A stretch of DNA of 64,000 nucleotides from Escherichia phage ECBP2, in sequence record NC_018859.1; one strand, written 5' to 3'. A program made the position numbers and the translations under genes. Within the stretch, counting starts at the first letter, position 1, and each line of letters starts with the position of its first letter. Positions 47,046 through 63,645 of the stretch are shown piece after piece. The notes beneath the pieces are model-generated. The model ran no database searches, had not been told where the DNA came from, and saw only the letters and a list, made by a program, of their open reading frames with translations.

Positions 47046-47054
47046 GATAACACC

Positions 47055-48804: not shown

Positions 48805-48812
48805 ATTCGCCT

Positions 48813-50033
48813 CTATTTATTGAAGAATAATTTTTCCAAAATGTTTTCCCACTCTTCTGAGGGACGTACTGTATAATTACTACCTGTCAGTCCATTGGAC
48901 ATACTACTGATAATGTTATACATGTTGTAGCTTCGAGCTGAAGCTGTTTCATTGTTCCAGTTATAACCGAACACAATTTTAGCAAAAGATGTTTCAGATT
49001 CAGCCACCTCTCGGATAAATTCAACCAAGAGTGACTTTTCTGTGATGATTGGGCGGGTATCTTCCGACAGATGGCAATATTGAGGCAAAAGGATTGGCAA
49101 GAACATCGAGTTGTTCACTCGACAATCACGAACACCTTCACTGCGATAGATCAGACTGGAGAAGTCTTCATCACGCAGGTGGCCTTCACCTTCAGTGTAT
49201 TCACACTGTCGCCATTTGGTCTGGCGAGGCTCAATCATCGTACTACCAACACCCACTGTATACAGAGATGCTTGGAAGATACAGGAATCGTAATCATTCC
49301 CTGTTAAAGCAACACGTTCGTTACCGAATACATTCACTGAAGAGTTGATCAGTCGGCTGAATGCAAGAGAGGCTAAAGGAGACCAGCCCTTCTTATACAT
49401 CTTGTTCAACATTTCATACACAGCAGATTTTTCATCATCTGTATAGAATGTGCGATTCAACATCAGATAGAACAGAGCACGATCAGCGGGACAGCCATCA
49501 GTGCAAACACCCATGAACCCCACTTCATGCCACACCAGACATGAGTCAGAGTCTTTGTCCATAAATGCTGCAAAGGTTTCCATAACAACACGATCAGTGA
49601 TGTCAGGACGGTTGTTTTCTTCTGCCCATGTTTCCACATGAGAAGGAGGACGAGGGTCTTCATTTTCTAACCCTTCACGGAAATACTGAGTAGCGATATA
49701 TTCAGTATCACCATAACGTCTTACACCGTGAGCTGGAAGATGTGTTCCGGAGTTCCAGATATACTTGATTTCAGACATAGGCAACATATTCTCAAGAACG
49801 TTCTCTTCAGCAGTGCCTTGACGAACCATCATATTTTTACTCCACACCTTGATGCGGATATTCCAGCCGTAGTTGCTGTCATACGTGTTGTAGTAGTCAG
49901 GATCATCGTCTTCATCATCTTCATCATAATCACCACCCTGATAGTAACCTGCTTTAAGGAAACCATAACAAGGAGGCCAGACGGTTACAACATCTTCTGA
50001 TTCTTTCCAGCTTTGAAGTGTTACAGGGAACAT
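48813..50033 (-). CDS. hypothetical protein (ligase cluster) with acidic N-terminal tract
   Basis: 406-aa ORF; DYDEDDEDDDPDYY. Confidence 0.45.
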   Translation of the reverse strand: MFPVTLQSWKESEDVVTVWPPCYGFLKAGYYQGGDYDEDDEDDDPDYYNTYDSNYGWNIRIKVWSKNMMVRQGTAEENVLENMLPMSEIKYIWNSGTHLPAHGVRRYGDTEYIATQYFREGLENEDPRPPSHVETWAEENNRPDITDRVVMETFAAFMDKDSDSCLVWHEVGFMGVCTDGCPADRALFYLMLNRTFYTDDEKSAVYEMLNKMYKKGWSPLASLAFSRLINSSVNVFGNERVALTGNDYDSCIFQASLYTVGVGSTMIEPRQTKWRQCEYTEGEGHLRDEDFSSLIYRSEGVRDCRVNNSMFLPILLPQYCHLSEDTRPIITEKSLLVEFIREVAESETSFAKIVFGYNWNNETASARSYNMYNIISSMSNGLTGSNYTVRPSEEWENILEKLFFNK

Positions 50034-50044
50034 CTTTTACCTCT

Positions 50045-50407
50045 TTACTCTGCTACCAGAAGGCCCAGAGATTTGCGAATGTAGGCAATGCTACGGAAGT
50101 TTCGGTAGTTTTCTTGGAAGCGCATTTTTTCGAATTCTGCTTCCTGAAGTTCTACCTCTGCTGCATTGTATCCTGCCACAGCCAAACTCACCACATCCTG
50201 AGGTAAGGTATTACGACGACGAATAAGATATTTATTCGCCTTTAACTTGCTTTGTGCACGAGCCATTTTGGCCTTTGCCGCCTTGATGCCATGAGCAATC
50301 CAGAGCAATTGCTGCTCCAAATCATTCTCGTCCATGCCACCCAAATCATTTGCTACTTTATGCAGCGTAGACAGGTTCACATGGCCTTTGATGGGGCGTA
50401 GGTTCAT
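50045..50407 (-). CDS. hypothetical protein
   Basis: 120-aa ORF. Confidence 0.4.
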   Translation of the reverse strand: MNLRPIKGHVNLSTLHKVANDLGGMDENDLEQQLLWIAHGIKAAKAKMARAQSKLKANKYLIRRRNTLPQDVVSLAVAGYNAAEVELQEAEFEKMRFQENYRNFRSIAYIRKSLGLLVAE

Positions 50408-50571
50408 AACTTCTCCTGTTTATCACATTGATTGGTAAGCCAGTTATAAGACCCTCTGTTGTTCTTGCTTAATTCACAAGATACAAAGGAAGTCACACGG
50501 GCAAACCCCACGGTGGCTAAGCAAATAAAGATTGCTGCCAATAAGAACTTAACTTTCAACTTATTATCCAT
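50404..50571 (-). CDS. small secreted/membrane protein (55 aa, below track cut-off)
   Basis: MDNKLKVKFLLAAIFICLATVGFA...; stop overlaps the next ATG. Confidence 0.3.
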   Translation of the reverse strand: MDNKLKVKFLLAAIFICLATVGFARVTSFVSCELSKNNRGSYNWLTNQCDKQEKL

Positions 50572-50590
50572 ACAACCTCTTCTTTGAACT

Positions 50591-50616
50591 TAAAAAAGGA
50601 CTCTCCTAAGAGAGCC
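50591..50616 (-). terminator. rho-independent terminator
   Basis: GGCTCTC-TTAG-GAGAGTCC hairpin + U6 on the - strand. Confidence 0.5.
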
Positions 50617-50684
50617 AAGCTTTAAGGCCAATTAAATAGATATCACCCAATATCTGTGGATAACCTGCTCTTAAAATATTCTAT

Positions 50685-50815
50685 CCGACGGATGTTCGAG
50701 GACTGTTCCTCTCCCTAGCATCGGCCCCATACGGGTAAGATTAAATTAAGTTTAGGTTAGTTGAGCCAGAATAGCTCACATAGCCCTCTGATACTCACAA
50801 GGGCTATAGATGTTA
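50685..50815 (-). other. conserved 3' non-coding element, copy 1
   Basis: About 130 nt starting at the stop of gene 50813-51064; core CTCACATAGCCCTCTGATAnnCACAAGGGCTATA...GATGTTAC is shared with 56348-56465. Confidence 0.5.
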
Positions 50816-51064
50816 CTCTGTGGCTCCGTCGAAGCGTAGGATTGCTGTTGGAACAGGAATCACAACCATGTCAATCTCTAAACGGAAGAGATGGCCTGTG
50901 CTTAGCTGAACTGCTGTTACCGGTTTAGCGATACCACCAACAGATGCTGAGGGGATTCGAATAAAGAAATCCCCCGGATATTCCGTTGCACGAAATACAT
51001 CTCCCGGTGACATATCCTTTACTTGGGTAATTGATTCAGGAGGGGTTTTATTAGCAATTTGCAT
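50813..51064 (-). CDS. small GDVF-motif family protein
   Basis: VKDMSPGDVFRA... Confidence 0.5.
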   Translation of the reverse strand: MQIANKTPPESITQVKDMSPGDVFRATEYPGDFFIRIPSASVGGIAKPVTAVQLSTGHLFRLEIDMVVIPVPTAILRFDGATE

Positions 51065-51297
51065 TACAGACCTTTCTTAGCACGATCTTTGGCAGTTTTG
51101 CCAGTGCGGATACGGTGGGAAACATTAACCAGCTCGCCGCCTTCGACGATGGTCACGCTTTTGTTTTTCGCAATATCAAACACAGACTTCTCTGTACCAC
51201 CCAGACGAATCTGACGCGGTTCACTTTGGGTCTGAGTTGACTTGGATTCAAACTGGAACGGCTGACGGATGGCATCAATTGCGCTAACTTTAGACAT
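51064..51297 (-). CDS. hypothetical protein
   Basis: 77-aa ORF. Confidence 0.4.
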   Translation of the reverse strand: MSKVSAIDAIRQPFQFESKSTQTQSEPRQIRLGGTEKSVFDIAKNKSVTIVEGGELVNVSHRIRTGKTAKDRAKKGL

Positions 51298-51325
51298 GTT
51301 TTTATTACCTTAAATTAAAGAGAGA

Positions 51326-51739
51326 TTAAACAACGAATTGGAACGCTTCGTATCCAAACTTGTACGAGAAACCGTGCTTGAACTTCACTACACGACCACG
51401 ATCACGGAAAGCTTTCAGACGACTGCTGAACCCAGCCATCGGCTCAGGGTCAATAGGGCTGCGAATCTTCATAGCTACAGAGTGCAGCTTGAAGCGCTTA
51501 CCAGTGCTACAGGCCATCATCACGTACTCCATACGAGTAGTCCAGATGTTAAGCACCATGCTTGTTTTCTCCGCTGACCAACCAGTCTTGCGGGCGATTT
51601 CCTTATGGATGTTAAGTTCCAAAGGAAGTGGGAATTGCTTGTTGAATGAAGCCGGATAAAGCTTGACCAGAAGATCAATGTTTTCTTTATACGTTAAGTA
51701 AGCCAATTTCTTGCTTACGTTGGGGAATTTCCCAGCCAT
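51326..51739 (-). CDS. ProQ/FinO-domain-like RNA-binding protein
   Basis: LYPASFNKQFPLPLELNIHKEIARKTGWSAEKTSMVLNIWTTRMEYVMMACSTGKRFKLHS follows the FP..F...PL.I...S...L..Y....Y...G..R.L pattern of ProQ/FinO N-domains. Confidence 0.5.
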   Translation of the reverse strand: MAGKFPNVSKKLAYLTYKENIDLLVKLYPASFNKQFPLPLELNIHKEIARKTGWSAEKTSMVLNIWTTRMEYVMMACSTGKRFKLHSVAMKIRSPIDPEPMAGFSSRLKAFRDRGRVVKFKHGFSYKFGYEAFQFVV

Positions 51740-51937
51740 TTTTGAAGCTCCAAAACAGCGCCGAAAAGAGAGGCGTCATAGTAGCTAAAGGGAGGAGAGA
51801 AGAGGGCTTATTTACTTGCCTTTTTCTGTCCGTTAATGTACCAGATAACTGAACCATCAGGCTGTCGTTGACCGAAGCCTTTCAAGTTAACCATTTCTTC
51901 TTCAGAGTAGGCACGTTTTCTCACTGATTTTCTCCTG

Positions 51938-52195
51938 TCAGTAGAAGGTGTGTGTAGAGTCGTCGTTCATAGATAACCAAACGAAGAAGACAATCACACA
52001 GAAAGCAATAATACCGAGAGTTGCAAGGATTATAGTGTTAGCTAATGTGATATCTAACACTCTTTGCAGGTACATAAAGAATTGTATGATACCACATAAC
52101 CCTAGCACGACCCCAATAACAATAAGGAGCCAGTACGTGCAGAGAAGGACTGCATCCAATAGTGATACATACTTTGGATCATCTTTATGTTTCAC
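51938..52195 (-). CDS. small multi-TM membrane protein
   Basis: Three hydrophobic segments. Confidence 0.4.
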   Translation of the reverse strand: MKHKDDPKYVSLLDAVLLCTYWLLIVIGVVLGLCGIIQFFMYLQRVLDITLANTIILATLGIIAFCVIVFFVWLSMNDDSTHTFY

Positions 52196-52448
52196 TAATC
52201 TTCTCCACTAAATCCAGAGTTGCCGATTCAAATACAACACCAACTGGCATATTGGATGCCATATTACGAACATATCCACTCTGCATCGACACAGCTCGGT
52301 GGTATTCACAACCATTAGAGCTTTTGTTTACTTTCATGTAAATGGTTTGTTCTTTATCTTCTTTCAAAGTAAAGAAAGAGCCGATAGAAACACCTGCCAC
52401 CATTAGAGGAATATCCGCAATACGAGTTTTGTTAATGGTCAGAGCCAT
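52185..52448 (-). CDS. small protein, divergent GDVF-family member
   Basis: IADIPLMVAGVSIGSFFTL. Confidence 0.4.
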   Translation of the reverse strand: MALTINKTRIADIPLMVAGVSIGSFFTLKEDKEQTIYMKVNKSSNGCEYHRAVSMQSGYVRNMASNMPVGVVFESATLDLVEKISET

Positions 52449-52451
52449 TGC

Positions 52452-52706
52452 TTACTCCTTAATAGTTGCTTCAGCTTTGATAGGAATAACAGCAACATCT
52501 TTACGAGGCGCTGTCGCTCGGCCTGTGTTAAGACAGGCTACGAGTCTGTGCTCATCCGCACCTTTAATGCAGAGTCGAGTTGAGAACTCGGTAGACAGCA
52601 AGATGTATAAATCACCATCTTCACTGTTAGGATACATAAAGCAATCCCCAAGTCGCAAAGCACTGAGGGGTATTGAATTTTTACCTGCTGGCATGTTAAC
52701 TTTCAT
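52452..52706 (-). CDS. small GDVF-motif family protein
   Basis: LSALRLGDCFMY. Confidence 0.45.
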   Translation of the reverse strand: MKVNMPAGKNSIPLSALRLGDCFMYPNSEDGDLYILLSTEFSTRLCIKGADEHRLVACLNTGRATAPRKDVAVIPIKAEATIKE

Positions 52707-52716
52707 TTCATCACCT

Positions 52717-53013
52717 TTATTTGTGAGAGTTTACGAACTCTTCAAGAACATTAACTGCATCTCGATATGCATTGGTAACTTTATACCAGTGATCAGTACC
52801 GAATGCACTCGGTTTGACGATTCTAACCAGACGACGGTGATAACGCACTGAGTAGACTAGATTCTCATAAGTCACCCTCAGTTCGTTTTTGCGTTCCATC
52901 TGAATAGATTTAAGGTGTCGCTTTGTTTTCCAGACTGTTACCGGCATAACCCTCTTACCTTGTTGTAAAGTATGGACCAATTTATGAAAGAACTCTCGGA
53001 AGAATGCTTTCAT
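52717..53013 (-). CDS. hypothetical basic protein
   Basis: 98-aa ORF. Confidence 0.4.
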   Translation of the reverse strand: MKAFFREFFHKLVHTLQQGKRVMPVTVWKTKRHLKSIQMERKNELRVTYENLVYSVRYHRRLVRIVKPSAFGTDHWYKVTNAYRDAVNVLEEFVNSHK

Positions 53014-53231
53014 AAATAGGGGGAGGGGACGAATCCTCCCATATCCTATTAATTAATGTTGCATGTAAGACCTAACAATCCGATGCTGTAGTGGATAGCG
53101 TAAAACGCTTACCGGCATTAAACCCAGCCCATGAGGGGCTTATGTGATTAAAATGCTCAACATTGAGCGGTTAGTTGATAGGAGATCTGAAGTCCTATCT
53201 CAAAGGACTCTCGTAAGAATCCTTCACGATA

Positions 53232-53486
53232 TTACTTAGTAATAAAGACTGTCACCTTATCCATTACCCAGCCTATCAACATAAGGAAAGGTAAGAAGAG
53301 GATAAAGATCAGCATAAAAGGCCAGAAGAATATTACCGTCCAAATAGAATATTCATCAGGCTTACCACTCCATGAGGAATGGAAGAAGTTGTAGAGTGTA
53401 TTGGTTTTGAAGCACCATTTAACTACAATGGCTGCTAACCACCAACCAATAACATAAATCAGGAGGACATACGCTGCTGTAATCAT
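53232..53486 (-). CDS. small multi-TM membrane protein
   Basis: Three hydrophobic segments, Trp-rich. Confidence 0.4.
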   Translation of the reverse strand: MITAAYVLLIYVIGWWLAAIVVKWCFKTNTLYNFFHSSWSGKPDEYSIWTVIFFWPFMLIFILFLPFLMLIGWVMDKVTVFITK

Positions 53487-53713
53487 TCACCGTTCCATTG
53501 ATAGTTGCGAGTTACCACGTTTCCGTGGATAAGGAAGTGCTGGCGGCGAAGGATATCTTTAACGTTGTAGTAGGCAGCGTTACCGAGATGGCCTTCTTTA
53601 ATAAGCCAACGAAGATTACGGATATCAACCAACAGCATTTTTACTTGCTGTTGGCATGAAGTTTGAGCTGCTGTTTCAAGTAGAGCTTTCGTATCAGAAT
53701 AATGACCGGACAT
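53483..53713 (-). CDS. hypothetical protein
   Basis: 76-aa ORF. Confidence 0.4.
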   Translation of the reverse strand: MSGHYSDTKALLETAAQTSCQQQVKMLLVDIRNLRWLIKEGHLGNAAYYNVKDILRRQHFLIHGNVVTRNYQWNGE

Positions 53714-53714
53714 A

Positions 53715-54041
53715 TCACCACTCCTTACCTGTTGTTGTCACAGAGCCACCACACAGCTCACCACGGGAGATGAAGTCATAACGTGACCAATCACCTTGGG
53801 TAGCCATATCACGCTTTGCATAAGCCTTCTCGTCAACAGCACCGCCATTGGAACAAGAAGCACCAGCATAACGCATATCAATTTCACCACTAGGAATCTT
53901 CTCCCCGCTGTGCCAACGGGAAACACAGACACCTTCTACCGATAATGCACACCATCCATCAGGACGATGCTGTACGCAGCCTGTAAGAGCTACACAGGCG
54001 ATAAAGATACAGGTTAAGGTAATTACACCACCCCAGCTCAT
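53715..54041 (-). CDS. Cys-rich lipoprotein
   Basis: Signal peptide ending in lipobox LTGC; eight further Cys. Confidence 0.45.
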   Translation of the reverse strand: MSWGGVITLTCIFIACVALTGCVQHRPDGWCALSVEGVCVSRWHSGEKIPSGEIDMRYAGASCSNGGAVDEKAYAKRDMATQGDWSRYDFISRGELCGGSVTTTGKEW

Positions 54042-54178
54042 GATCCCTCCTGAAGCGCCTTACGGCGGCTATCTCGCCAAGCCATCCAAGTGTAGATTTT
54101 GAGTTCTTCTCTTTCTTCTTCACTGAACAAACGAGGAGTGAAGATATCATCAAACCATTTATTAAACTCAGGGGTCAT
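54038..54178 (-). CDS. small protein (46 aa, below track cut-off)
   Basis: AGGAGG RBS; stop overlaps the lipoprotein ATG. Confidence 0.3.
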   Translation of the reverse strand: MTPEFNKWFDDIFTPRLFSEEEREELKIYTWMAWRDSRRKALQEGS

Positions 54179-54294
54179 ATACCCTCCTACGTTGATTGGT
54201 AGCCCCAAGATGCCGTATCTTATCCAACGACCCCATACAGACCTATAGGCTATTGTATGGCGCCGAAGGAGTACGCAAGCATCTTAGGGACATA

Positions 54295-54370
54295 TGGTGC
54301 ACCCTACAGGATTCGAACCTGTAACCAACGACTTAGAAGGTCGCTGCTCTATCCATTGAGCTAAGGGTGC
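54295..54370 (-). tRNA. tRNA-Arg (anticodon UCU), CCA encoded
   Basis: GCACCCTTAGCTCAATGGATAGAGCAGCGACCTTCTAAGTCGTTGGTTACAGGTTCGAATCCTGTAGGGTGCACCA folds as a cloverleaf: 7-bp acceptor, GCTC/GAGC D-stem, anticodon loop CUUCUAA, T-arm ACAGG-TTCGAAT-CCTGT. Confidence 0.85.
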
Positions 54371-54379
54371 TTGAATTGT

Positions 54380-54688
54380 TTATAAGGAGAAAGACTTCTT
54401 ACAATCCTTATCTTCAAAAGTGTAGTAGCCTGTTGTATCAGGGAAGTAGGCATACTTTGTTTCTTTGCCATCAGTAGCCATGACACGATTACCAGAAGTT
54501 GTTTCTACAAACAGAAGCCCATCTCTTACCATACCATTAGATTCTTTGATACCAGTTAAGCTATGCTCTTTAAGAGTGCATTGCTGAACACTCTGATACT
54601 TAACTCCAATCTCTGCACTATTAACAGAGATGATACCAATGGTTGTCATTAGTAGTAAGGTTGAGATGATAAAATGCTTTTGTTTCAC
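54380..54688 (-). CDS. secreted protein
   Basis: Signal peptide MKQKHFIISTLLLMTTIGIISVNSA. Confidence 0.45.
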   Translation of the reverse strand: MKQKHFIISTLLLMTTIGIISVNSAEIGVKYQSVQQCTLKEHSLTGIKESNGMVRDGLLFVETTSGNRVMATDGKETKYAYFPDTTGYYTFEDKDCKKSFSL

Positions 54689-54706
54689 ATTAACCTCTGG
54701 ATTTAT

Positions 54707-54916
54707 TTAACTGAAGATACGCAAGGCCACATCGTGATAGATATGACCGGGGACTTTGTGCTGTTCTATTTTCAAACAGCGTTTACAGACACGAGATACA
54801 CGAGACTCTTTCGCTTCAACTGGAGTGTCTTTAGCGTGAGTGATATGTAAGTTTTCAGTGATCACCCACTCGTGTTTACATCCAGAATCTTCGGGCTTTT
54901 TCTTACGAAAGAACAT
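54707..54916 (-). CDS. small zinc-ribbon-like protein (family with the next two)
   Basis: CKHEW...CKRC. Confidence 0.4.
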   Translation of the reverse strand: MFFRKKKPEDSGCKHEWVITENLHITHAKDTPVEAKESRVSRVCKRCLKIEQHKVPGHIYHDVALRIFS

Positions 54917-54924
54917 AACACCTC

Positions 54925-55089
54925 TTAGATCAAATCTGTTTTCTTGTGCTTACCACACACTTTACAGCGGGAGTAGATACGCAACCCTTGCTGCTCTCCT
55001 CCAGCAATACGATGTGTAACCTTTAGTTCATAAGTAGAAAGATCTTCCCACTCATGGAAATGAAAGAAACGTTTGAACCATTTAATCAT
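54925..55089 (-). CDS. small zinc-ribbon-like protein (54 aa, below track cut-off)
   Basis: MIKWFKRFFHFHEWEDL...CKVCGKHKK. Confidence 0.35.
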   Translation of the reverse strand: MIKWFKRFFHFHEWEDLSTYELKVTHRIAGGEQQGLRIYSRCKVCGKHKKTDLI

Positions 55090-55098
55090 AACGATTCC

Positions 55099-55245
55099 TT
55101 AGATTATGTCACGATGACTAACTTCACCACACACTTTACACTGGATATCGTAACGTACGCCCCTTGAATCTCCACAGATCAGCGGACGGGTGGCAATAAT
55201 CTTCCAATCATGACAATGAAAGACACGCTTTATCCACGTAATCAT
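55099..55245 (-). CDS. small zinc-ribbon-like protein (48 aa, below track cut-off)
   Basis: MITWIKRVFHCHDWKII...CKVCGEVSHRD; paralog of the previous. Confidence 0.35.
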   Translation of the reverse strand: MITWIKRVFHCHDWKIIATRPLICGDSRGVRYDIQCKVCGEVSHRDII

Positions 55246-55246
55246 A

Positions 55247-55504
55247 TTAAACACACGCCGGTAGTTCAATTAACTGAGGAGCACGACAAGGACCATCTTC
55301 ATACACACCAACCAACGTTGGCATGTAAGGCCCAGCGCACTGGTATTCGTCGAACAGTTCGTTATAGTTAGGCTTCCACTTCCAAGCCCACACATAACCC
55401 ATTCGATCAATGGCAATGTAACGAGTGTTCAGAGGAACCTGCATCATCACATCACCAACTGCTATTACTTTCGTAATAACTGCTGCTCGGAAATTTGTCT
55501 TCAT
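55247..55504 (-). CDS. hypothetical protein
   Basis: 85-aa ORF. Confidence 0.4.
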   Translation of the reverse strand: MKTNFRAAVITKVIAVGDVMMQVPLNTRYIAIDRMGYVWAWKWKPNYNELFDEYQCAGPYMPTLVGVYEDGPCRAPQLIELPACV

Positions 55505-55752
55505 GGCGCTTTAATCTCAATCTGAACATTGACAACAAATACAGTATGGTTTGCACTGTACACCGAAGTGCCTATGATTGGCTTGTCATCACTGAGGATT
55601 TCAACAGCGTGTTCAAGGTTGATCTTCAGATGAAGACGCCCTGATTCCATGAAGAAATCACCAGCACGTATCTCACCGAACTTGGCTGGCACACCGATAG
55701 AGGGTATCAGTATGTCAGTGCGACCTTTACGGTCAAATAAACGATTAAACAT
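55501..55752 (-). CDS. small GDVF-motif family protein
   Basis: FGEIRAGDFFME. Confidence 0.45.
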   Translation of the reverse strand: MFNRLFDRKGRTDILIPSIGVPAKFGEIRAGDFFMESGRLHLKINLEHAVEILSDDKPIIGTSVYSANHTVFVVNVQIEIKAP

Positions 55753-55796
55753 ATCAACCTCTCTTGTTAGTTTAAGTAAGAGTTATCCCTTAATTA

Positions 55797-55827
55797 AAAC
55801 AACAAAGGCCACCCCGAAGGGCAGCCT
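55797..55827 (-). terminator. rho-independent terminator
   Basis: GGCTGCCC-TTCG-GGGTGGCC hairpin + U-run on the - strand. Confidence 0.5.
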
Positions 55828-55831
55828 CTTA

Positions 55832-56029
55832 TTAAGCACTACGCAGTTTGTTATTCAAGAAGCGATCTTCTGCATTATATAGGAATGCATAGAATAATTC
55901 TTTTGCTACATCCCGATCGCAATTGAGACATTTAGAAACCTGTAACAACAGGCCATCGCGACTGTTAGGATGGTCAATTATCGCAAGACGAATAATCTCA
56001 CGGATACCAACATCATGCTCAGCCGCCAT
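55832..56029 (-). CDS. hypothetical protein
   Basis: Track start 56041 is GTG; ATG (MAAEHDVG) at 56029. Confidence 0.35.
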   Translation of the reverse strand: MAAEHDVGIREIIRLAIIDHPNSRDGLLLQVSKCLNCDRDVAKELFYAFLYNAEDRFLNNKLRSA

Positions 56030-56159
56030 AGAACCAATCACCTTGACGCTTACGGATGTTAGTGGTCAGACGAAGCATGGCAGACTCAATCTTCAGAGCA
56101 CCATTTGCTACTGCATCCATACGTTCAGGACGGTTCATACGTTTGGTTGTCTTTTTCAT
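56019..56159 (-). CDS. small basic protein (46 aa, below track cut-off)
   Basis: MKKTTKRMNRPERMDAVANG... Confidence 0.3.
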   Translation of the reverse strand: MKKTTKRMNRPERMDAVANGALKIESAMLRLTTNIRKRQGDWFYGG

Positions 56160-56190
56160 AACGTTCTCTCTTTGTTAATGGAGGCAGGAT

Positions 56191-56223
56191 TGCCAGTTAA
56201 TATAAAGGGAAGCCCTACACGTT
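56191..56223 (-). terminator. putative terminator hairpin
   Basis: GGAAGCC...GGCTTCC 7-bp stem with 11-nt loop followed by a U-rich run on the - strand. Confidence 0.35.
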
Positions 56224-56347
56224 AAGGCTTCCGCTTGTACAAACTGTCGAGAACTCTCTACCCCTAGATTGTTCTCTATCCCAAACCGATACATACCCCT
56301 ACATATCGGAATGCCATTCGAAAATTAAACAGGTTTTAGTCTATCAC

Positions 56348-56465
56348 CGGATGTTTGAGACAAGTCTCGCCCTAGCGGTGAGCCATATGGCATTGAGATT
56401 ATAGTTAATTGAGGAACATCCTCACATAGCCCTCTGATAAACACAAGGGCTATAAGTCGATGTTA
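56348..56465 (-). other. conserved 3' non-coding element, copy 2
   Basis: Core shared with 50685-50815; begins at the stop of gene 56463-56687. Confidence 0.5.
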
Positions 56466-56687
56466 CTTATTAGTTAGTCGAACGTTAGGCACAAGTTTAA
56501 CTGCTGCTGTTTTCATCTCTCCAATGACCTTACCGGTAGAGAGATTAACAAAATAAGCAGTGACTTCACCACCACAAGCTGTACGCATATAATAACTGCT
56601 TCCAGTTCTGTCAAACTGAAAAACGTCTCCCGGCTTTACATCACCAAGAGTTGTGACGCTTTGCTTTTTATCAATATCAATCTTCAT
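56463..56687 (-). CDS. small GDVF-motif family protein
   Basis: LGDVKPGDVFQF. Confidence 0.5.
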   Translation of the reverse strand: MKIDIDKKQSVTTLGDVKPGDVFQFDRTGSSYYMRTACGGEVTAYFVNLSTGKVIGEMKTAAVKLVPNVRLTNK

Positions 56688-56918
56688 TTAACCACCAATA
56701 TTCGTTACTTGTACATTAGGTACAGAGATAACTTCATGATCTTCAGGTATCTGGAACAAAGTCCCCTGACCAAGACCAACGACACGGCGCATACCCTGCA
56801 CATAGGTGTCTGTCTTTAGGTAGAGGTGTTCAGTGTTATTTTGTAATCGGAATACGTCACCCGGACGTAGATCGCTGAGCTTTTTAGTAACAACTAAAGA
56901 TGGGAGATTAATTTTCAT
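56688..56918 (-). CDS. small GDVF-motif family protein
   Basis: LSDLRPGDVFRL. Confidence 0.5.
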   Translation of the reverse strand: MKINLPSLVVTKKLSDLRPGDVFRLQNNTEHLYLKTDTYVQGMRRVVGLGQGTLFQIPEDHEVISVPNVQVTNIGG

Positions 56919-57157
56919 TACTTACTCTCGATAGCAATTTTGTATTCATACTTAGAGACTTCAGCGTCCGCAGAAACCTTAAGTATATCAGAGGTGTTGT
57001 TTAATTGCATTGCCGATGAATATTGAGATGATACCTTCATCCAGAAAAAGGTGTCACCATCGGGGTTTTGAAACTTGAAGATGTCCCCATTAGAGAGGTC
57101 ACCGAAAGTTAACTTATTTTGTTTAGGCTTGGGGATGATTTCGAAATTCATTTTCAT
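56918..57157 (-). CDS. small GDVF-motif family protein
   Basis: FGDLSNGDIFKF. Confidence 0.5.
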   Translation of the reverse strand: MKMNFEIIPKPKQNKLTFGDLSNGDIFKFQNPDGDTFFWMKVSSQYSSAMQLNNTSDILKVSADAEVSKYEYKIAIESK

Positions 57158-57345
57158 TTGATTAACACCAAATCAGTACGACGTTCGAAGGAAGGGGAAG
57201 ACTCACCATTCCACTGAACAAGATAACAGAGAACACCATCAATTATTGTTCTCTGACGAATAACACCTGTAATAGTTCCACCAACAAGGCGAACGGTGTC
57301 GCCAATGGTAATTTTAACCTTTGAGCGCATCTCCTGTTTCCTCAT
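57154..57345 (-). CDS. small protein related to the GDVF family
   Basis: KITIGDTVRLVGGTITGVI...LCYLVQWNG; start taken at an internal Met of track ORF 57154-57483. Confidence 0.35.
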   Translation of the reverse strand: MRKQEMRSKVKITIGDTVRLVGGTITGVIRQRTIIDGVLCYLVQWNGESSPSFERRTDLVLIK

Positions 57346-57619
57346 TCTGGCGTTTAATTTCTTCAGTGAGTTGCTTATTGAGATCTTGAATACGCTTAAT
57401 CTCCCAACCCAAAGAAGCCAAACGATCATTACGTGCTTCGATTTGCTCCTGCATCTTTGCCAGCTTAAGTCGAGTAGCATCATTAAAGTCTTCCTCTAGC
57501 TTAAGAAGGAACTCGTAACAACGCTTCCAGCTTGCTGATTTATTTCTTAAAATAATAAATCCTAGAGTAGAAATCGTTACAGTGAGTACGAAAAGAAATT
57601 TATAAACCTCTAAAGTCAT
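57314..57619 (-). CDS. membrane-anchored coiled-coil protein
   Basis: N-terminal TMD FLFVLTVTISTLGFIIL then coiled-coil. Confidence 0.4.
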   Translation of the reverse strand: MTLEVYKFLFVLTVTISTLGFIILRNKSASWKRCYEFLLKLEEDFNDATRLKLAKMQEQIEARNDRLASLGWEIKRIQDLNKQLTEEIKRQNEETGDALKG

Positions 57620-57820
57620 ATCTTTATCCTCTTAAAGTAAGATATTATAAGAAATATTATTTAGAATTTATTATTTCTAAACTTAATTTCTATCAATAAT
57701 TTTCAGAGGTCTATATACAGTCATTACCTCTGGTTCCGAATCACTACCACTTTTTGCAGAGAAAATCATAAGTAGGTGATTTATAAAGGAATTTAGTTTG
57801 CCAATCTTGGCACCTATGAA

Positions 57821-58207
57821 TCAGTCACGGGCACTATTATTGAACACTAAATCACCACAATACATAGGATTGGTATACCACTTTGGCACCCCTTCACTCT
57901 TACTTTGAAAGTGTGTACCGCTGTACAAAGGCACATAATCTTTCTTCAGTGCACGTCTTGCAAGCCGCTCGCTCTCTCTGATTGACTTCTTAGTCAGAGG
58001 GTTATCATCACGAATCAGCTTTACATAACGCTTAAAAGGTTTCTCCTTCTTTAATAAGACGGGTATCCACTCGAACTGGTTTCGTTGGTTTATAACCTGC
58101 TCGGCAGTCAGTTTTCGTTGTGACATTCTGTTTATTACGGTATCCGCTACTAATGCTTTGCAAGCGGTTGGCTGATTCCCTGCCTCATAATAAATAGTCA
58201 ATGTCAA
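57821..58207 (-). CDS. cell-wall hydrolase-like protein (SleB/CwlJ-type)
   Basis: YYEAGNQPTACKALVADTVINRM resembles the N-terminal motif of SleB-family hydrolases. Confidence 0.4.
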   Translation of the reverse strand: MTLTIYYEAGNQPTACKALVADTVINRMSQRKLTAEQVINQRNQFEWIPVLLKKEKPFKRYVKLIRDDNPLTKKSIRESERLARRALKKDYVPLYSGTHFQSKSEGVPKWYTNPMYCGDLVFNNSARD

Positions 58208-58260
58208 AAGTAGCTGGGCTGTCGTTATCAGAACTTACTACCCCCTTGTTTTACGGGCAT

Positions 58261-58285
58261 AAAAAAGCCCCATCCGAAGACGGGG
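58261..58285 (-). terminator. rho-independent terminator
   Basis: GCCCCGTC-TTCG-GATGGGGC hairpin + U5 on the - strand. Confidence 0.45.
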
Positions 58286-58445
58286 CGACCTGAAAGAGTG
58301 AACATGACCTCACTCATTTAAGAATCCTCGCAAAGACTCTTAAAAAAGCGGCCTCGTTAAAGGCCCGGTCAAATGACCATCCAATAGGGATTGAACCATG
58401 CCAATGATTCACAAAGGGAGTTCCCTTTAGGCATCACTAGCTACG

Positions 58446-58466
58446 CAAAAAGCCGCACAAAGGCGG
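58446..58466 (-). terminator. rho-independent terminator
   Basis: GCCGCC-TTTGT-GCGGC hairpin + U5 on the - strand. Confidence 0.45.
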
Positions 58467-58527
58467 CAGACACAAAGACGCTCAAGAAGAGCGTCATAGT
58501 AGTTGACTACTGGTACAGAGAAGAGGC

Positions 58528-58971
58528 TTACTTCACTCTCGCTTCCTTGATGGGGTCAATGTATTTTTCAACTCCCCATTTATGCTGACTATCAGCGTAG
58601 AAAACATCCGGTGCACACTGGCTTGTCTTAGGGAAAGCCTGCGGGTCTTTCGTGCTACCCTTAAACTTCTGTTTACCACGGGTGCGACCATTACAGAAGA
58701 TTTCTAACTTCTTCTCTTCTTCGGTTTTAGCTCCCCCGCTCTGTAACAAAGAACGTTTATGATCAGCTAACAACAACGCATCAGCACGATGGACACGATG
58801 GCCTACACGTTTTGCCACACTGGAAGGAACATGGGATTCAGCCTCAGCCTTTGCAGCACGACGTTTTAAACTGCGCTTACTGACGTGATTGGTTGCCTTC
58901 GACTTCTCTTTCTCCAGTTCAGAGATAGAAAAACAACGCCCGCCCTTCATGCTGATTTTAGATTTAGCCAC
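58528..58971 (-). CDS. hypothetical basic protein
   Basis: 147-aa Lys/Arg-rich ORF. Confidence 0.4.
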   Translation of the reverse strand: MAKSKISMKGGRCFSISELEKEKSKATNHVSKRSLKRRAAKAEAESHVPSSVAKRVGHRVHRADALLLADHKRSLLQSGGAKTEEEKKLEIFCNGRTRGKQKFKGSTKDPQAFPKTSQCAPDVFYADSQHKWGVEKYIDPIKEARVK

Positions 58972-59040
58972 AATCTTATTCCTTTTAGTGATAAGTTATA
59001 TCGGGCAAGCCCATCAAGGCGATAGGCTTGAACAAATAAC

Positions 59041-59250
59041 TTAATCAAGTAAACCGAATGACTTCCAACTGCGTAGCAGGATTGTACCGTCATCCATAGT
59101 TACACATAATTTTAGTAGTTTCTTATTGGCACTACTCACCGTTGTAATTCTTCCGGTTGTGCATTTACCTTTATTGCTGTAAAGATATACAACACGACGG
59201 CCTAACAGTCGGGAAGGAGCTTTCTTAAATTCTGAGATGTTAGTGATCAT
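59041..59250 (-). CDS. hypothetical protein
   Basis: 69-aa ORF. Confidence 0.4.
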   Translation of the reverse strand: MITNISEFKKAPSRLLGRRVVYLYSNKGKCTTGRITTVSSANKKLLKLCVTMDDGTILLRSWKSFGLLD

Positions 59251-59471
59251 AATGCTTGATACCTTTGAATGTGTTCAATACGGGTAGATTGAGCAAAGGA
59301 CGCTTTAACAGCCATTTTCCTAACTTCTTCTTTACGCTGATTGGTGTGTACAGTATCCCAATGGTTGTTATCACGTTGGCGCTGTAATATCTTACTGCAT
59401 TTGCGATGGTTTCCCGTGCTGCGATGTTTCTCACAAATAGGACACTTGCCAAAATTGCTACTGAATATCAT
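59247..59471 (-). CDS. small zinc-finger-like protein
   Basis: CPICEKHRSTGNHRKC. Confidence 0.4.
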   Translation of the reverse strand: MIFSSNFGKCPICEKHRSTGNHRKCSKILQRQRDNNHWDTVHTNQRKEEVRKMAVKASFAQSTRIEHIQRYQAL

Positions 59472-59695
59472 TTTCTCAATCCCAACTTTCTTAAGATACG
59501 GCCTAACGTTGTTTCTTGCGTGATAATATAGCTGATCGCTTCACGTTCCAACGTTTCGATCTTCATTGGCGACGGATACCATTCACCGGTAATCACACAT
59601 TTACACTCAACGCCATACTTTTTAGATAGGCGGTAATGTTGACCGTTGACAAGGTTTCTATAAATCGTGGTATGCGTAATTAACATGATCATCAC
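59468..59695 (-). CDS. hypothetical protein
   Basis: 75-aa ORF, ATGA overlap. Confidence 0.4.
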   Translation of the reverse strand: MMIMLITHTTIYRNLVNGQHYRLSKKYGVECKCVITGEWYPSPMKIETLEREAISYIITQETTLGRILRKLGLRK

Positions 59696-59797
59696 CTTTG
59701 ATTAAATTCTTTGATTAATGCACTGAATCAATGCACTGATAAAAGAAAAGGCGCTACCCGTTAAGATAGCGCCTTATGTTTATTCAAATTGTCTTAC

Positions 59798-60706
59798 TTA
59801 TGCTGCCTGACGTGCTGCCATAATCTCAGCCGCTTTACGCAATACTTCTTCCTCTTCTTCTTTCGCAGCTTGTTCGGTACGGGTAGCAACCGTTGAAGAG
59901 ATACGACCGCGCAGGCTTTCTAACTTCTCCTGCATTTTGGCAATGGTGGATTCCATTTCATCGGCATACGAATCCAGTGATTCCAGTTCCTTGCTTGATG
60001 CGTTCATCAGATAATCATCAGAGATCGCTACCGTTGAAGCCGTGACTTTCTTGATGAGTGAGTCAAAAGACTTCTTAACCTTGCCTACTTCTTCACTCAG
60101 GGCAATAGTATTATCACTGGTAGCGCCGTTACGTTCATCAGCCAATAATTTTGCTTCAATACGGATTGCATTTAAGCGTTCAACCAAAGCGTAAATATCT
60201 TGGTTAAAATCTTCCTTGTTTTTCGCCGGGATTTGCAGGTGTGCCGCCACGTTGTCATTGCAACCCTTGTAAAAGTTAGGGTTATCTACTTCAATTTCAC
60301 GACCTAACGCAAAGTTTTCGAAAGCGTTCGACCAGCGAGCGCGATTCTGTTCCATTTTGGCCTTAATTTGCGCTTCTTTCGCATCTTCTTTCGCTTTCGC
60401 TTCACCTTCCAGATTAATCCACTTTTTACGACCGTTTGCCGCATCGGTGTTAAACTTGACAGGAGTCAGGAAAGTGATTGCAGTGGCGATCACATCCATA
60501 TCACGAAAACGCTCGGTTAACAGAAAATCGACCGCCGCCTGCAATACGTCTAACTTTTTACCGTTGCTGCGGAAGTGCTGCAAATGACCTAACAGAAAAT
60601 TAGAAACATCTTGCTTAATCGCCGCGTTATTGCTACGAATGTTGTTAGCCAGTGCGTTAAAACCAGACTCTTTTACCAGATTAAAAATTTTAGCCATGAT
60701 ATTCAC
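59798..60706 (-). CDS. coiled-coil hypothetical protein (first gene of the - arm)
   Basis: 302-aa ORF; Ala/Glu/Lys-rich; visibly more GC-rich than downstream genes. Confidence 0.5.
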   Translation of the reverse strand: MNIMAKIFNLVKESGFNALANNIRSNNAAIKQDVSNFLLGHLQHFRSNGKKLDVLQAAVDFLLTERFRDMDVIATAITFLTPVKFNTDAANGRKKWINLEGEAKAKEDAKEAQIKAKMEQNRARWSNAFENFALGREIEVDNPNFYKGCNDNVAAHLQIPAKNKEDFNQDIYALVERLNAIRIEAKLLADERNGATSDNTIALSEEVGKVKKSFDSLIKKVTASTVAISDDYLMNASSKELESLDSYADEMESTIAKMQEKLESLRGRISSTVATRTEQAAKEEEEEVLRKAAEIMAARQAA

Positions 60707-61499
60707 CTTTCAATTGTAAGGGCACTATGCCCCGCTCTCTATGAGCTTTTTAAGTCGCCATTGACTTATCAATATCCACTCATTGTTAAGTAATTATTGA
60801 TAAGTGGGGCGGTCTTATCAGAAGTTAACCTTGCCGCCCCTTTATCTGTGATGTTTCATCTGGTATCTTTAATTAGTCGCTATAAACGAAGCCGACCTGA
60901 TAGCGATGATCAATCATCACAATAAGGCAGTGCGTCCGACTCTAATTAGTTACTTTATTGTAACCGTCGGCAATATCGTCTACTTTGCTTTCGCTCTCGC
61001 CTATCCTTTTATACTAACTCTCAATCGCTAACCATCGCCCACTACGGGAGGTTATTGCGAAAGAGTCATTAGCCGTCTAATATTCCGACGTTTTATATCT
61101 TTCGGCAAGTTTACTACATAACCCGACTATGTACTTTCATCTTATGATGAATCTCAAGCCGTTCACATCGTAAACGTTCACACTAAACCTTATTGTTAAA
61201 TAGCAATTTGCCACTTTTTAACCACTCCCCGCCGCTCTCAATTGAGCGTTAATTCGTCGGACTTGCCTACCCTGATTAACTTCTTTCACTGTAGCACCAT
61301 GTTAGCGATGGCCGCCGCTACCCTTAACCGTGGGCGATTAGCTTAAGCCTTTGCGTGTACTCAATGAATCCGTTTATCAGTGGTGACTTTTCCAGTAAGG
61401 GAATGTAAAACTGTTTACCCTGATATTTTAGGGAGTTTTACGCCGTTTTATCTGGTATGCTGTCCGATGGTTATTATCTTCCAGCATATTTAACCGATA

Positions 61500-62470
61500 T
61501 AGGAGAATGTTTAAATTGTTAAAGAGCGGTAAATCTATCAACGTGCTTTCTCACGTTATGCAACTGTTAGCCGTTGTTACGCTTTTCACTGAAGCGGTGA
61601 TTTGCTCAAGTGATGCTCATTATGGACCATGTTGTTTTTGCCGTCAATCACTTTTTTAATCTTTTTCGTCGTTCCCGCTATTGGGAGGATATATCAACCC
61701 GCTTTATTGGGTTGAAGATTAAGCGATGAGGCTTAACCCATGATTCATATTGTTAAAGAGCGTTTAGCCTTTTATAGTGTCTGCTAATCACTACATCATT
61801 AAAGGCTTACTTGTTCATTAACGGGGCGCCTAAGCCCGAACTACCCGCTGCACTATGTGCCACCTTTCCCGCGATACGTTGATTTGGGAACTAGTTAACG
61901 TTGTTTTGTTAACTTGTGGTTAGTATGGACTACCTTAACCACGTTTGCAACCTCTTTTTTATCATCTTCTTTTATTCTTTTCCCTTATCTCGCGTGAATC
62001 TATGCGAAAGGGCAAGATGATAAGTCTGATTTGTCTTTTAGGAATCTAGTGCGCTTTCAAGCATTGACCATTTGAAAGTATCGAACAAATGAGGCTTATT
62101 TTGTTGCTCATCGTCCGCATGTTCACGTATGAATCAGGAATCAATTCTAGTGGTCAACTAAGCGCCTTATAGTAATGACGTTCCCGCCACCTGTAAGACA
62201 AATCATATTTTTAAAGAGCGGGATTTTTCAAGTCATCGCTGACTATGCTCACTATATATCAGGCTTTTTCCGGTGTCAATACTCTTTTTCAAGTATTTTC
62301 ACTTTCTAGCCTGATTTTTAAAGAGCGGGGCAATTTCTTGCCTTGTATGTTTTACATCGTACCCGATGAAATGAAGTATACATTAATCAGATGAGGTTGC
62401 AATAGGGTAAAGCAAATTATTTTAAACTTTTTCACTATAGGGAGGTAAAAGAGCGGGCGCACGTGATACA
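61500..62470. repeat. dispersed copies of an AAAGAGCG(G) motif in a non-coding region
   Basis: TTAAAGAGCGG-like sites at about 61515, 61753, 62214, 62325 and 62449, plus 63701; no ORF of 60 aa or more between 60793 and 62352. Confidence 0.45.
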
Positions 62471-62558
62471 TCATAGGAAACGGCTTGTAAAGCGATAAAA
62501 AGCGGCCTGAAACGCACTGTAGCGAGCTAAAAGGGAGTAAGGTATACAATCACCTTAG

Positions 62559-62586
62559 AAAAGAAAAAAGCCTCATAGCGAGGCTT
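62559..62586 (-). terminator. rho-independent terminator
   Basis: AAGCCTC-GCTAT-GAGGCTT hairpin + U-run on the - strand. Confidence 0.5.
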
Positions 62587-62664
62587 ATAAGAAGGGTTTA
62601 AAACATCAGATAGATTATGACCATAGGCATGACCACGGCACAATAAAGAAGGAAGATCAGTCCT

Positions 62665-62772
62665 ATGGATTTAAGCATTACCCATAGCCGATAGTAAAAC
62701 ACCCAGCAGGAGAACGACCAGAAAAAACCCTACAACCGTTTTAATGATGAATTTAATAAACCACATAGCCAT
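62665..62772 (-). CDS. small hydrophobic peptide (35 aa, below track cut-off)
   Basis: MAMWFIKFIIKTVVGFFLVVLLLGVLLSAMGNA behind an AAGAGG RBS. Confidence 0.3.
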
Positions 62773-62860
62773 AAACCTCTTTAATTAAAGGATGTAAGAA
62801 TAAAGCATATCAGCGACGAATAACGCCACTGTAACGACGAATAAGCACCGCCAAAAATAA

Positions 62861-63127
62861 TCATTCCCCATTTATATCACCCTCAATCAGCCCATGATTT
62901 AGCAGGTTAGCAAGTGATAATCCACCGTCAAAATATATAGAACGAAAATCATCGCGGGTAATTTCAAAATCAGCAAAGGCTAGCCAATCTTTAAGAGGCT
63001 GATATTCCATCCTGCAAAAAGTGATAACAGGTAACGTTATCTGACCATCAAGTGTGTTAAACATGATAGATTGCTCGCCAACAAAACAAGAAAAGCCGTT
63101 TGATAATTTAACTTCTTTAATAGCCAT
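62861..63127 (-). CDS. hypothetical protein
   Basis: 88-aa ORF downstream of 63154-63645. Confidence 0.4.
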   Translation of the reverse strand: MAIKEVKLSNGFSCFVGEQSIMFNTLDGQITLPVITFCRMEYQPLKDWLAFADFEITRDDFRSIYFDGGLSLANLLNHGLIEGDINGE

Positions 63128-63153
63128 TATTTATACTCCAAAAAATAGATTAT

Positions 63154-63645
63154 TTACTTACTAGCCTTAATGCAGTTGGCTAAATTAACGTGAACGGTAT
63201 AAACAGCGTTATCAGCGTTATTATAAACGGTAGTCGCAAGCATTGATTCGTTCATCGGGCCATAACTGACCAGATTCGTGACAGCTTTCGCATGGCTGTA
63301 ACGTTGTACAGTGCCAAATGTAACTAGTTCAGGATCGTTATCAGTACGCTTGAGAACTAGATCACTGTTAGGCTGATTGTCTAGTGTTTTGGTACTAACG
63401 ACCAGACCATCACGGGAAACGTTACTGAATTTAACTTTTAACACGATTTGATTGGTGTCACTATCCGCACCGTTACAAATCAGCCAACCTTTATTGATGG
63501 AACTAGCGAAAACGTCAGCGGCATTAGTTGCAGGAGCAGGACTAGCGATAGCCTTATCAGAAAGAGAAGTTACCAGTGTACTAACACCGATCGCGGCGAC
63601 TAGCGCATAACTTGCCAGATTAATAGCCTGCATTACTTTCGCCAT
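63154..63645 (-). CDS. secreted protein
   Basis: Signal peptide MAKVMQAINLASYALVAAIGVSTLVTSLSDKAIA; AAGGAG RBS; TTGTCG-N16-TATAGT sigma70-like promoter upstream. Confidence 0.5.
   Translation of the reverse strand: MAKVMQAINLASYALVAAIGVSTLVTSLSDKAIASPAPATNAADVFASSINKGWLICNGADSDTNQIVLKVKFSNVSRDGLVVSTKTLDNQPNSDLVLKRTDNDPELVTFGTVQRYSHAKAVTNLVSYGPMNESMLATTVYNNADNAVYTVHVNLANCIKASK

Follow-up and report, generated by a model that had tools for sequence, protein, structure and literature searches.

A predicted five-helix RNA domain occurs in two copies in the early operon of Escherichia phage ECBP2 and other Kuraviruses

Background

What kind of element begins at the stop codon of a small gene in the early region of Escherichia phage ECBP2, and what could it do there? 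The window analyzed here is a stretch of 64,000 nucleotides (nt) of this phage (sequence record NC_018859.1), in which a first-pass annotation had marked positions 56348-56465 as the second copy of a conserved 3' element made up of a core and a hairpin. Comparison with homologous sequences indicates that a non-coding RNA domain not described before, predicted to fold into five helices, is present here in two copies, the marked stretch being one of them. The window is 88-96% identical to the phiEco32-like E. coli podophages (genus Kuravirus), the closest being Bas88, TH43 and NC-B. The phiEco32-like phages serve as a model for takeover of the host RNA polymerase (RNAP) and are used in therapy cocktails; to our knowledge, nothing is known of RNA-level control of their 17-kb early operon.

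Small genes on the minus strand occupy the window from approximately 47 to 62 kb, and a promoter scan of the window found strong sigma70-type promoters on the same strand at 62279, 62231 and 62402. This arrangement places the element inside a long early operon of about 17 kb and means that it is to be read as minus-strand RNA, with its two copies lying approximately 6 and 11.5 kb from the early promoters. The promoters agree with those of SU10 and phiEco32, whose early genes are driven from three host-RNAP promoters (PMC4281155).

Structure of the domain

Copy 2 runs on the minus strand from 56465 to 56344, and the element as a whole is approximately 125 nt long with five helices. It begins with the UAA stop codon (56463-56465) of an upstream gene for a 74-amino acid (aa) protein (56463-56687), within a 5' boundary motif AAG-UAA-C, and the earlier statement that the copy starts at the stop codon of a gene of the so-called GDVF family is thus borne out. 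There follow hairpin H1 (56425-56454), which in the minimum free energy (MFE) fold consists of a 5' arm UAUAGCCCUU (56454-56445), a 10-nt loop (56444-56435) and a 3' arm GAGGGCUAUG (56434-56425), and hairpin H2 (56410-56424), in which UGAGGA (56424-56419) pairs with UCCUCA (56415-56410) across the loop UGU. A single-stranded A/U-rich linker, AUUAACUAUAAUCUCAAU (56392-56409), leads to H3 (56382-56391; GCC-AUAU-GGC), a 3-bp hairpin with an RUAU loop that abuts the core. The core (56344-56381) is formed by helix P4 (UCACCG 56381-56376 with CGGUGA 56349-56344), a 7x7 internal loop of the general form CUAGGGM / RAACAUC (here CUAGGGC 56375-56369 opposite AAACAUC 56356-56350) and a cap, P5 (GAGA 56368-56365, loop CUUG, UCUC 56360-56357). 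With P4 of 6-7 bp and P5 of 4-5 bp, the core amounts to roughly 18 stacked positions, and a conserved purine-rich tail, UAGA (56340-56343), lies 3' of P4. The marked range was right at its upper end, but its lower end, 56348, leaves the 3' strand of P4 four bases short: the core reaches 56344 and the tail 56340.

Both copies fold more stably than shuffled controls (MFE z-scores of -3.1 and -2.7), as does the 274-nt untranslated stretch that follows the copy-2 stop codon (z = -4.1). Neither strand has an open reading frame (ORF) of at least 45 aa that overlaps 56340-56465. In copy 2 an alternative pairing is available in which AACAUC (56464-56459), a strand that takes in two of the stop-codon bases, pairs with GAUGUU (56420-56415), extending H1 and excluding H2. 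This extension is the MFE form in folds of copy 2 and co-varies (AACACC:GGUGUU in phiEco32), and the choice between the H1 extension and H2 may be a translation-sensitive switch specific to that copy.

Covariation in the helices

The helix segments of 16 distinct variants, drawn from homologues in a phage collection, IMG/VR, metagenomes and GTDB genomes, were aligned without gaps; for the contig L161, the correspondence of H1 and H2 was set by position. Standard pairs filled 98.1% of the helix cells, and 19 of the 29 pairs had changed on both sides. None of 500 shuffles came up to the alignment on any of five measures, and when the 3' partners were slid by 1-3 columns as a control, pairing fell to 31-44% with at most four co-varying pairs.

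Every helix adds covariation support. H1 is 98% paired, its inner pair being U-A or A-U in different Moazamivirus variants, and its loop varies freely (UUCG, UACG, or 10-12 nt). Five of the six H2 pairs have changed on both sides, and H3, which is paired throughout (100%), occurs as CCC/GGG, GCC/GGC and GGC/GCC. In P4, changes on both sides were found in four of six pairs, giving the forms CCGAUG/CGUCGG, (U)CACCG/CGGUG(A), UCGGUG/CGCCGA and AUAGCG/CGCUAU. The wobble intermediates, U.G leading to C-G or U-A, fit the minus-strand RNA and would be A.C mismatches on the opposite strand. The alignment thus shows a predicted five-helix structure of the minus-strand RNA in which pairing is kept while the sequence of the helices changes.

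Small "hypothetical protein" coding sequences have been annotated over the element at L002 7996-8136 and in several Kuravirus GenBank records, some of them on the opposite strand. Because of the covariation, these are probably spurious gene calls.

The invariant internal loop

The 14 nt of the internal loop are identical in 16 of 16 variants apart from one co-varying position. All variants also keep the H3 loop (RUAU), the closing G-C pair of P4, the GAG/CUC base of P5, and the purine-rich tail. At the co-varying position, which lies beside P5, A faces G or C faces A, except in two variants where A faces A. Isostericity rules lead one to expect such an exchange among A..G, C..A and A..A for a sheared trans-Hoogsteen/sugar-edge pair, and this pair, with the G and A next to it, would be expected to form a tandem sheared G.A step that stacks on P5. 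From the co-variation pattern, the 7x7 loop is probably not an open bubble but a structured non-Watson-Crick surface. We infer from a rigid, invariant surface of this kind that a macromolecule recognizes it, be it RNAP or some protein of host or phage origin.

Beside P5 the loop reads 5'-GA/5'-GA with isosteric substitutions, as do tandem sheared G.A and loop-E-like loops, and its symmetric 7x7 form recalls loop E of bacterial 5S RNA. Compared by sequence, however, it fits none of the consensuses of loop E, the sarcin-ricin loop (AGUA/GAA) or the K-turn. A GNRA receptor (CCUAAG/UAUGG) was considered and rejected, as H3 co-varies to GGC/GCC, and so was a CsrA sponge, since the copy-2 loop contains no GGA.

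Two copies in one genome

Copy 1 lies at 50685-50815 on the minus strand and has its parts in the same order as copy 2: the stop codon UAA (50815-50813), H1 (50808-50779), H2 (50778-50762), H3 (50735-50726; CCC-GUAU-GGG), P4 (50724-50719 with 50690-50685), the internal loop (CUAGGGA 50718-50712 and GAACAUC 50697-50691) and P5 (50711-50698). A search of the window for the core pattern GCTAGGG-N8-24-AACATCCG gave exactly two matches, 50689-50719 and 56348-56376, each of them on the minus strand; the number expected from shuffles was 0.00. A covariance model built from the core likewise returned these two sites only in the 64 kb (77.2 bits, E value 3e-18, and 65.8 bits, E value 4e-15), and the claim that core and hairpin recur in a second copy is upheld. 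When the helices of the two copies were compared for compensatory change, the check proposed in the first-pass annotation, seven pairs had changed on both sides (two in H2, one in H3, three in P4 and one in P5; counting a fifth P5 pair would make eight), one pair had changed on a single side (U.G to C-G), and none was broken. The two copies are, on this comparison of their helices, true paralogues of one structured element.

A repeat finder also reported a 34-nt direct repeat of 94% identity between the two copies (50775-50808 with 56421-56454). The H1 loop of copy 1 is of the UUCG type in most Kuraviruses (CCUUCUUCGGAGGG; for example L001 1530-1560), and the copy-2-type H1 seen within copy 1 of the window (50779-50808) is confined to the clade of the window. 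This restriction to one lineage points to a recent exchange between the copies, by recombination or gene conversion, as the source of the 34-nt near-identity, and not to retention since a duplication.

Distribution and novelty

At a coverage of at least 80%, copy 2 was found in 97 phage records and copy 1 in 99. The copy-1 query matched at 195 places, so that both copies were detected in most genomes; phiEco32 carries both. A single copy is present in the Salmonella phages 7-11, SE131 and SeKF_80 (Moazamivirus) and in pSal-SNUABM-01. It is an orthologue of copy 1, with an endolysin gene and the same amidoligase gene cluster downstream; in this region, nucleotide similarity between Kuravirus and Moazamivirus is confined to a unit of approximately 220 nt, from H1 to the terminator. 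A single copy is also present in L161, an unrelated phage-like contig with many small genes that was binned with a Flavobacterium metagenome-assembled genome, which has the full architecture with identical loops and with H1, H2 and P4 sequences that are all different.

Searches of IMG/VR, metagenomes and GTDB genomes with a tighter pattern found true members only in Kuravirus- or Moazamivirus-like contigs and in L161; soil, archaeal and cyanobacterial matches to it failed in P4 pairing. The loose pattern GCTAGGG-N-AACATCCG gave 120 matches in IMG/VR, almost all of them chance matches with P4 unpaired, and no true member was gained with a second pattern, which took in the H3 loop as well. No copy was found in the examined part of L169, the one relative of the L161 phage that was found, even with filters off, nor in the right 36.6 kb of Cronobacter phage GAP52.

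A scan of the whole window against Rfam 15 at gathering thresholds returned only a tRNA-Arg, and the element matched no family. When both copies were scanned by E value (E ≤ 10), only chance-level matches appeared (mir-30, 13.5 bits; Plastid-ccsA, 15 bits), and a match to STnc100 (21 bits against a threshold of 47) covered the copy-1 terminator alone. An 11-mer match to the 3' untranslated region (UTR) of SARS-CoV-2 was set aside as coincidental. As far as our search of the literature found, the element is undescribed, and it is a new structured RNA family that is confined to a few kinds of phage and present as two paralogous copies in each Kuravirus genome.

Upstream genes and the 5' boundary

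The genes upstream of the two window copies are homologous, as had been stated, although as distant paralogues: the 74-aa gene matches phrog_9955 and cross-hits phrog_6570, the family that the 83-aa gene preceding copy 1 fits best. Both belong to the GDVF family, at least seven paralogous proteins of 74-87 aa with a "GD(V/I/C/F)F" motif that are encoded across window positions 50813-57157. They are predicted to fold as an SH3-like barrel, for which the C-terminal domain of ribosomal protein L2 and KOW/Tudor domains are the nearest neighbors.

The further proposal that the element had been kept through a GDVF gene duplication was not supported, because the copies follow other genes in Bas92 and in several metagenomic Kuraviruses and occur singly in Moazamiviruses and L161. 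In Bas92 and in contig L134, copy 1 comes right after a gene ending in "...AKDRAKKG" and the GDVF gene is absent there, and in Bas92 and L135 copy 2 comes right after a small gene annotated as "DNA helicase". Among the Kuraviruses, each copy is directly preceded by at least five different gene ends, every one of which closes with RAG-UAA-C, and every copy-2 variant has AAGTAAC at its 5' edge irrespective of the upstream gene. The single copies in Moazamiviruses and L161 and the changing upstream genes argue that the element is an autonomous, occasionally transferred module with the GDVF genes as exchangeable neighbors, and on this evidence its link to those genes is incidental.

The 3' extensions

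The predicted non-coding RNA extends past the marked range of copy 2, where two more conserved hairpins are found on the minus strand. Hairpin A (56286-56309; CCGAUAUGUA-GGGG-UAUGUAUCGG) keeps its pairs through U.G/C-G/U-A and G-C/A-U changes, and hairpin B (56249-56276; GAGAACAAUCUA-GGGG-UAGAGAGUUCUC) has five compensatory pairs among eight Kuravirus variants. Both are present in all Kuraviruses, with six pairs preserved by compensatory change between them and with invariant GGGG tetraloops closed by U-A/A-U (UA-GGGG-UA). A UAGGG motif occurs four times in approximately 170 nt, in the core loop, hairpins A and B, and the terminal hairpin.

The terminal hairpin of copy 2 (56199-56232 with its tail, minus strand) has a stem GGAAGCC...GGCUUCC at 56232-56208, of 10 pairs with 5 G-C, followed by an interrupted U-tract, CUUUAUAUU, and is weakly terminator-like. 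At the homologous positions other Kuraviruses have different hairpins followed by CCGCUGUAUC, which is not a U-tract; after hairpins A and B they have a variable hairpin and then the conserved leader of a gene for a 46-aa basic protein. The 3' extension of copy 1 (50591-50684, minus strand) consists of a 34-nt block antisense to nrdD, a small hairpin and a strong terminator (50616-50599 followed by U6) that fits the definition of an intrinsic terminator and is conserved. The separate terminator-like hairpin described earlier is thus strong and conserved at copy 1, whereas at copy 2 it is weak and lies at 56232-56208, not at 56191-56223.

The antisense block of copy 1, AUAUUUUAAGAGCAGGUUAUCCACAGAUAUUGGG (50679-50646, minus strand, 34 nt), starts six bases after P4 and shares 32 of 34 positions with a sequence found in 5423 of 5426 complete E. 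coli genomes (L171 1501-1534). The host sequence belongs to the nrdD leader (-13 to -46) and stands directly before its Shine-Dalgarno sequence; relative to the nrdD mRNA, the RNA strand of the phage is antisense. At the level of sequence the block has what is expected of a trans-acting antisense small RNA (sRNA), namely long antisense complementarity to an initiation region. The host block is conserved in Salmonella and Citrobacter, and the Kuravirus version of it has an E. coli-specific flank. It is possible that the block acts by antisense regulation of host nrdD. Cronobacter phage GAP52 encodes its own NrdD and NrdG (L174 2156-7160) and had no copy of the element in the part examined; the Kuravirus window contains no nrdD or nrdG homologue, yet has the nrdD-leader-like block.

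A one-mismatch DnaA box, TTATCCATA, is present in inverted orientation on the plus strand at 50564-50572, approximately 90 bp from a perfect box that lies within the block. It overlaps the start codon of a gene for a 55-aa membrane protein, and the two boxes flank the copy-1 terminator.

The genes downstream of the element are mutually unrelated, encoding a membrane peptide, an endolysin and the basic 46-aa protein. The homologue of the last in phage 7-11 (gp135) is not adjacent to the element, and the 46-aa protein was rejected as a co-occurring partner on that account; proteins of 406 and 316 aa were rejected because they are unrelated to the 446-aa protein of L161. Downstream of gp135, 7-11 has an unannotated, non-coding gap of approximately 710 nt (82134-82844; L170 16135-16845) with sequences resembling a tRNA T-arm and acceptor (GGTTCGAATCC, GGTTCGACTCC...CCGCTCCA). 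A match there to the permuted transfer-messenger RNA (tmRNA) model was below threshold (29.6 bits against 47), and ARAGORN found nothing in the gap.

Elsewhere in the window, a tRNA/tmRNA scan found only the tRNA-Arg, at 54295-54370. Between approximately 60707 and 62200, a minus-strand stretch of about 1.5 kb downstream of the early promoter cluster, the ORF list contains no minus-strand ORF of at least 50 aa, and this stretch may be a long leader or an additional non-coding RNA.

Function and alternative explanations

We tentatively propose that the domain is a folded, nuclease-resistant scaffold for protein recognition and stability, belonging to a regulatory RNA that derives from the early transcript. 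Copy 2 would then be the 5' folded domain of an untranslated segment of approximately 300 nt in the sigma70-driven early polycistronic transcript, and would fold right after the upstream ribosome halts at the UAA that is itself part of the element. Such a portable scaffold would lend stability and a recognition handle to an RNA that is released from the early transcript or acts inside it, and the variable 3' extension would provide the specific activity. At copy 1 the effector would be the 34-nt stretch antisense to the nrdD leader, just 3' of the scaffold and followed by the strong terminator; at copy 2 the extension would comprise the two GGGG-tetraloop hairpins and then the leader of the 46-aa basic protein gene. 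A more specific form of the proposal is that the scaffold binds protein and carries exchangeable antisense or guide-like segments that reprogram host genes, copy 1 regulating nrdD mRNA and copy 2 another target; taken as a whole this is doubtful.

The unit at copy 1 resembles the sRNAs that derive from 3'UTRs or end in terminators, and cis-captured antisense RNAs, in ending with a strong terminator and U6 and in being complementary to a host leader near the Shine-Dalgarno sequence. It differs from enterobacterial sRNAs in that the complementarity is 34 nt long rather than a short seed and lies 3' of a large structured domain, and copy 2 has no such complementarity.

Several points count against the scaffold proposal. 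The 16 variants on which the fold is based amount to about five independent lineages, and the alignment (A4) was put together from the very helices that the proposed structure defines. Neither a promoter nor a processing site was identified. The nrdD-like block is centered on a perfect DnaA box, TTATCCACA (50663-50655), the sole perfect one in the window, and judged from this box the block may act at the DNA level. The versions of the block in Salmonella phages are no closer to the Salmonella nrdD leader than to that of E. coli. Finally, the copy-2 extension had no match in E. coli genomes and no complementarity beyond chance within the window, and the scaffold-plus-effector idea therefore depends on copy 1 only.

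Processive antitermination is an unlikely alternative to the scaffold. In this case the folded nascent RNA, alone or with a small phage protein, would let RNAP pass terminators, as with HK022 put, Bacillus EAR or lambda nut. The long operon would suit such a mechanism: the early promoters cluster far upstream, at approximately 62.2-62.4 kb (promoter scan; PMC4281155). The early strand is rich in terminator-like hairpins (29 found at 47000-64000, mostly on the minus strand, against 11.9 expected in shuffles), and copy 1 lies approximately 70 nt before its strong, conserved terminator, with too little space for a promoter before the next gene. The prediction of SH3/KOW-like barrels for the neighboring GDVF proteins also speaks for it. 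A stop codon fixed at the 5' edge of the element would also hold ribosomes off the site, as happens at nutR, downstream of cro. HK022 putL and putR are likewise phage early-operon RNAs in two diverged copies, upstream of terminators, with several helices, bulges and non-canonical pairs (PMC9378689). A put RNA suppresses the terminators that follow it independently of other factors, by way of the zinc-binding domain of RNAP beta'. However, put measures approximately 70 nt, comprises two stems plus a short triplex and is located immediately downstream of promoters, whereas the phage element has no match to it in sequence or architecture, is preceded by terminators and has its nearest sigma70-like promoters at approximately 62.2 kb; in length, number of helices and position it does not fit the definition of put. 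The Bacillus EAR is a structured intergenic RNA in a long operon and gives processive antitermination. The element shares this intergenic setting, but EAR has an Rfam model that gave no match here, includes a pseudoknot in its fold and occurs in a different range of hosts. Lambda nut, in which boxA precedes a boxB hairpin with a GNRA-like pentaloop and the cognate N protein has an arginine-rich motif, is also dissimilar, since the element has no boxA (CGCUCUUA-like), its H1 loops vary freely where a boxB would be sought, and the 46-aa basic protein, a candidate N-type partner, has its 7-11 homologue away from the element. More generally, among the strong terminators of the early region (59775, 58286, 55829 and 50616) those at 59775 and 58286 already precede both copies, most Kuraviruses have a hairpin after copy 2 that does not qualify as a terminator, and the L161 element is followed by only a weak hairpin.

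A role in mRNA punctuation, in the manner of the T7 RNase III sites, we also regard as unlikely; the element would then be a site of processing, 3' protection or both, dividing the early polycistronic RNA into segments and determining how stable the upstream message is. Its position would suit such a role, being always intergenic and directly after a stop codon, and so would the very stable H1, with UUCG or UACG tetraloops in many variants. The irregular helix made up of P4, P5 and the loop between them, of approximately 18 pairs with a central bubble, is reminiscent of the T7 R-sites. Primer-extension ends at intergenic hairpins of phage 7-11 have been ascribed to processing (PMC8948821, section 3.5). 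The T7 sites are also repeated stem/internal-loop/stem elements that follow stop codons in an early operon transcribed by host RNAP. They are, however, single extended hairpins with asymmetric loops, whereas here there are five helices, and the 7x7 loop, conserved across unrelated phages, is symmetric; neither simple protection nor recognition by RNase III requires 14 invariant loop nt across such phages. The helices are moreover shorter than the approximately 20 bp that RNase III prefers, and the element stands at just two among dozens of early intergenic junctions.

Two further accounts are improbable. A riboswitch-type attenuator, in which the internal loop binds a small ligand and governs a downstream terminator, would explain why invariant internal-loop nt lie between co-varying helices, as is typical of aptamers, and why a terminator follows copy 1 and the Moazamivirus copy. 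Yet the core is separated from the terminator by 70-130 nt and extra hairpins, no conserved alternative pairing of core with terminator was found, the A/C loop variants are uncorrelated with changes in the terminator, the downstream genes are functionally unrelated, and no Rfam aptamer matched. A new self-cleaving ribozyme, cutting the early transcript at or near the sharp 5' boundary, would account for the conserved edge RAG-UAA-C irrespective of upstream sequence, and twister, hatchet and HDV-like ribozymes offer parallels for a few invariant unpaired nt inside variable helices and a sporadic distribution among phages. Modular recombination explains the boundary equally well, though; neither a pseudoknot nor a second conserved loop was found that could make up an active site, and no Rfam ribozyme model matched.

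A DNA-level signal, either a protein-binding palindrome or an origin, to which the near-palindromic H3 (GCCATATGGC) and the perfect DnaA box at copy 1 might point, is very improbable, because the intermediates are G.U and not A.C with strand-specific wobbles in all helices, pairing is kept while sequence varies, copy 2 has no DnaA box, and the GC skew shows no inflection. An origin of replication was rejected since the skew simply follows gene orientation.

Implications

The element is a covariation-supported RNA domain with an invariant, probably non-Watson-Crick loop that is absent from Rfam and common to unrelated phages, and the partner of that loop could point to a new mechanism of antitermination, processing or host targeting. 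Should the doubtful idea of grafted guides be true, a scaffold of this kind would stand for a new class of phage regulatory RNAs built from modules. As nrdD encodes the anaerobic ribonucleotide reductase, the antisense match at copy 1 raises the possibility that these phages control the deoxynucleotide supply of the host under anaerobiosis.

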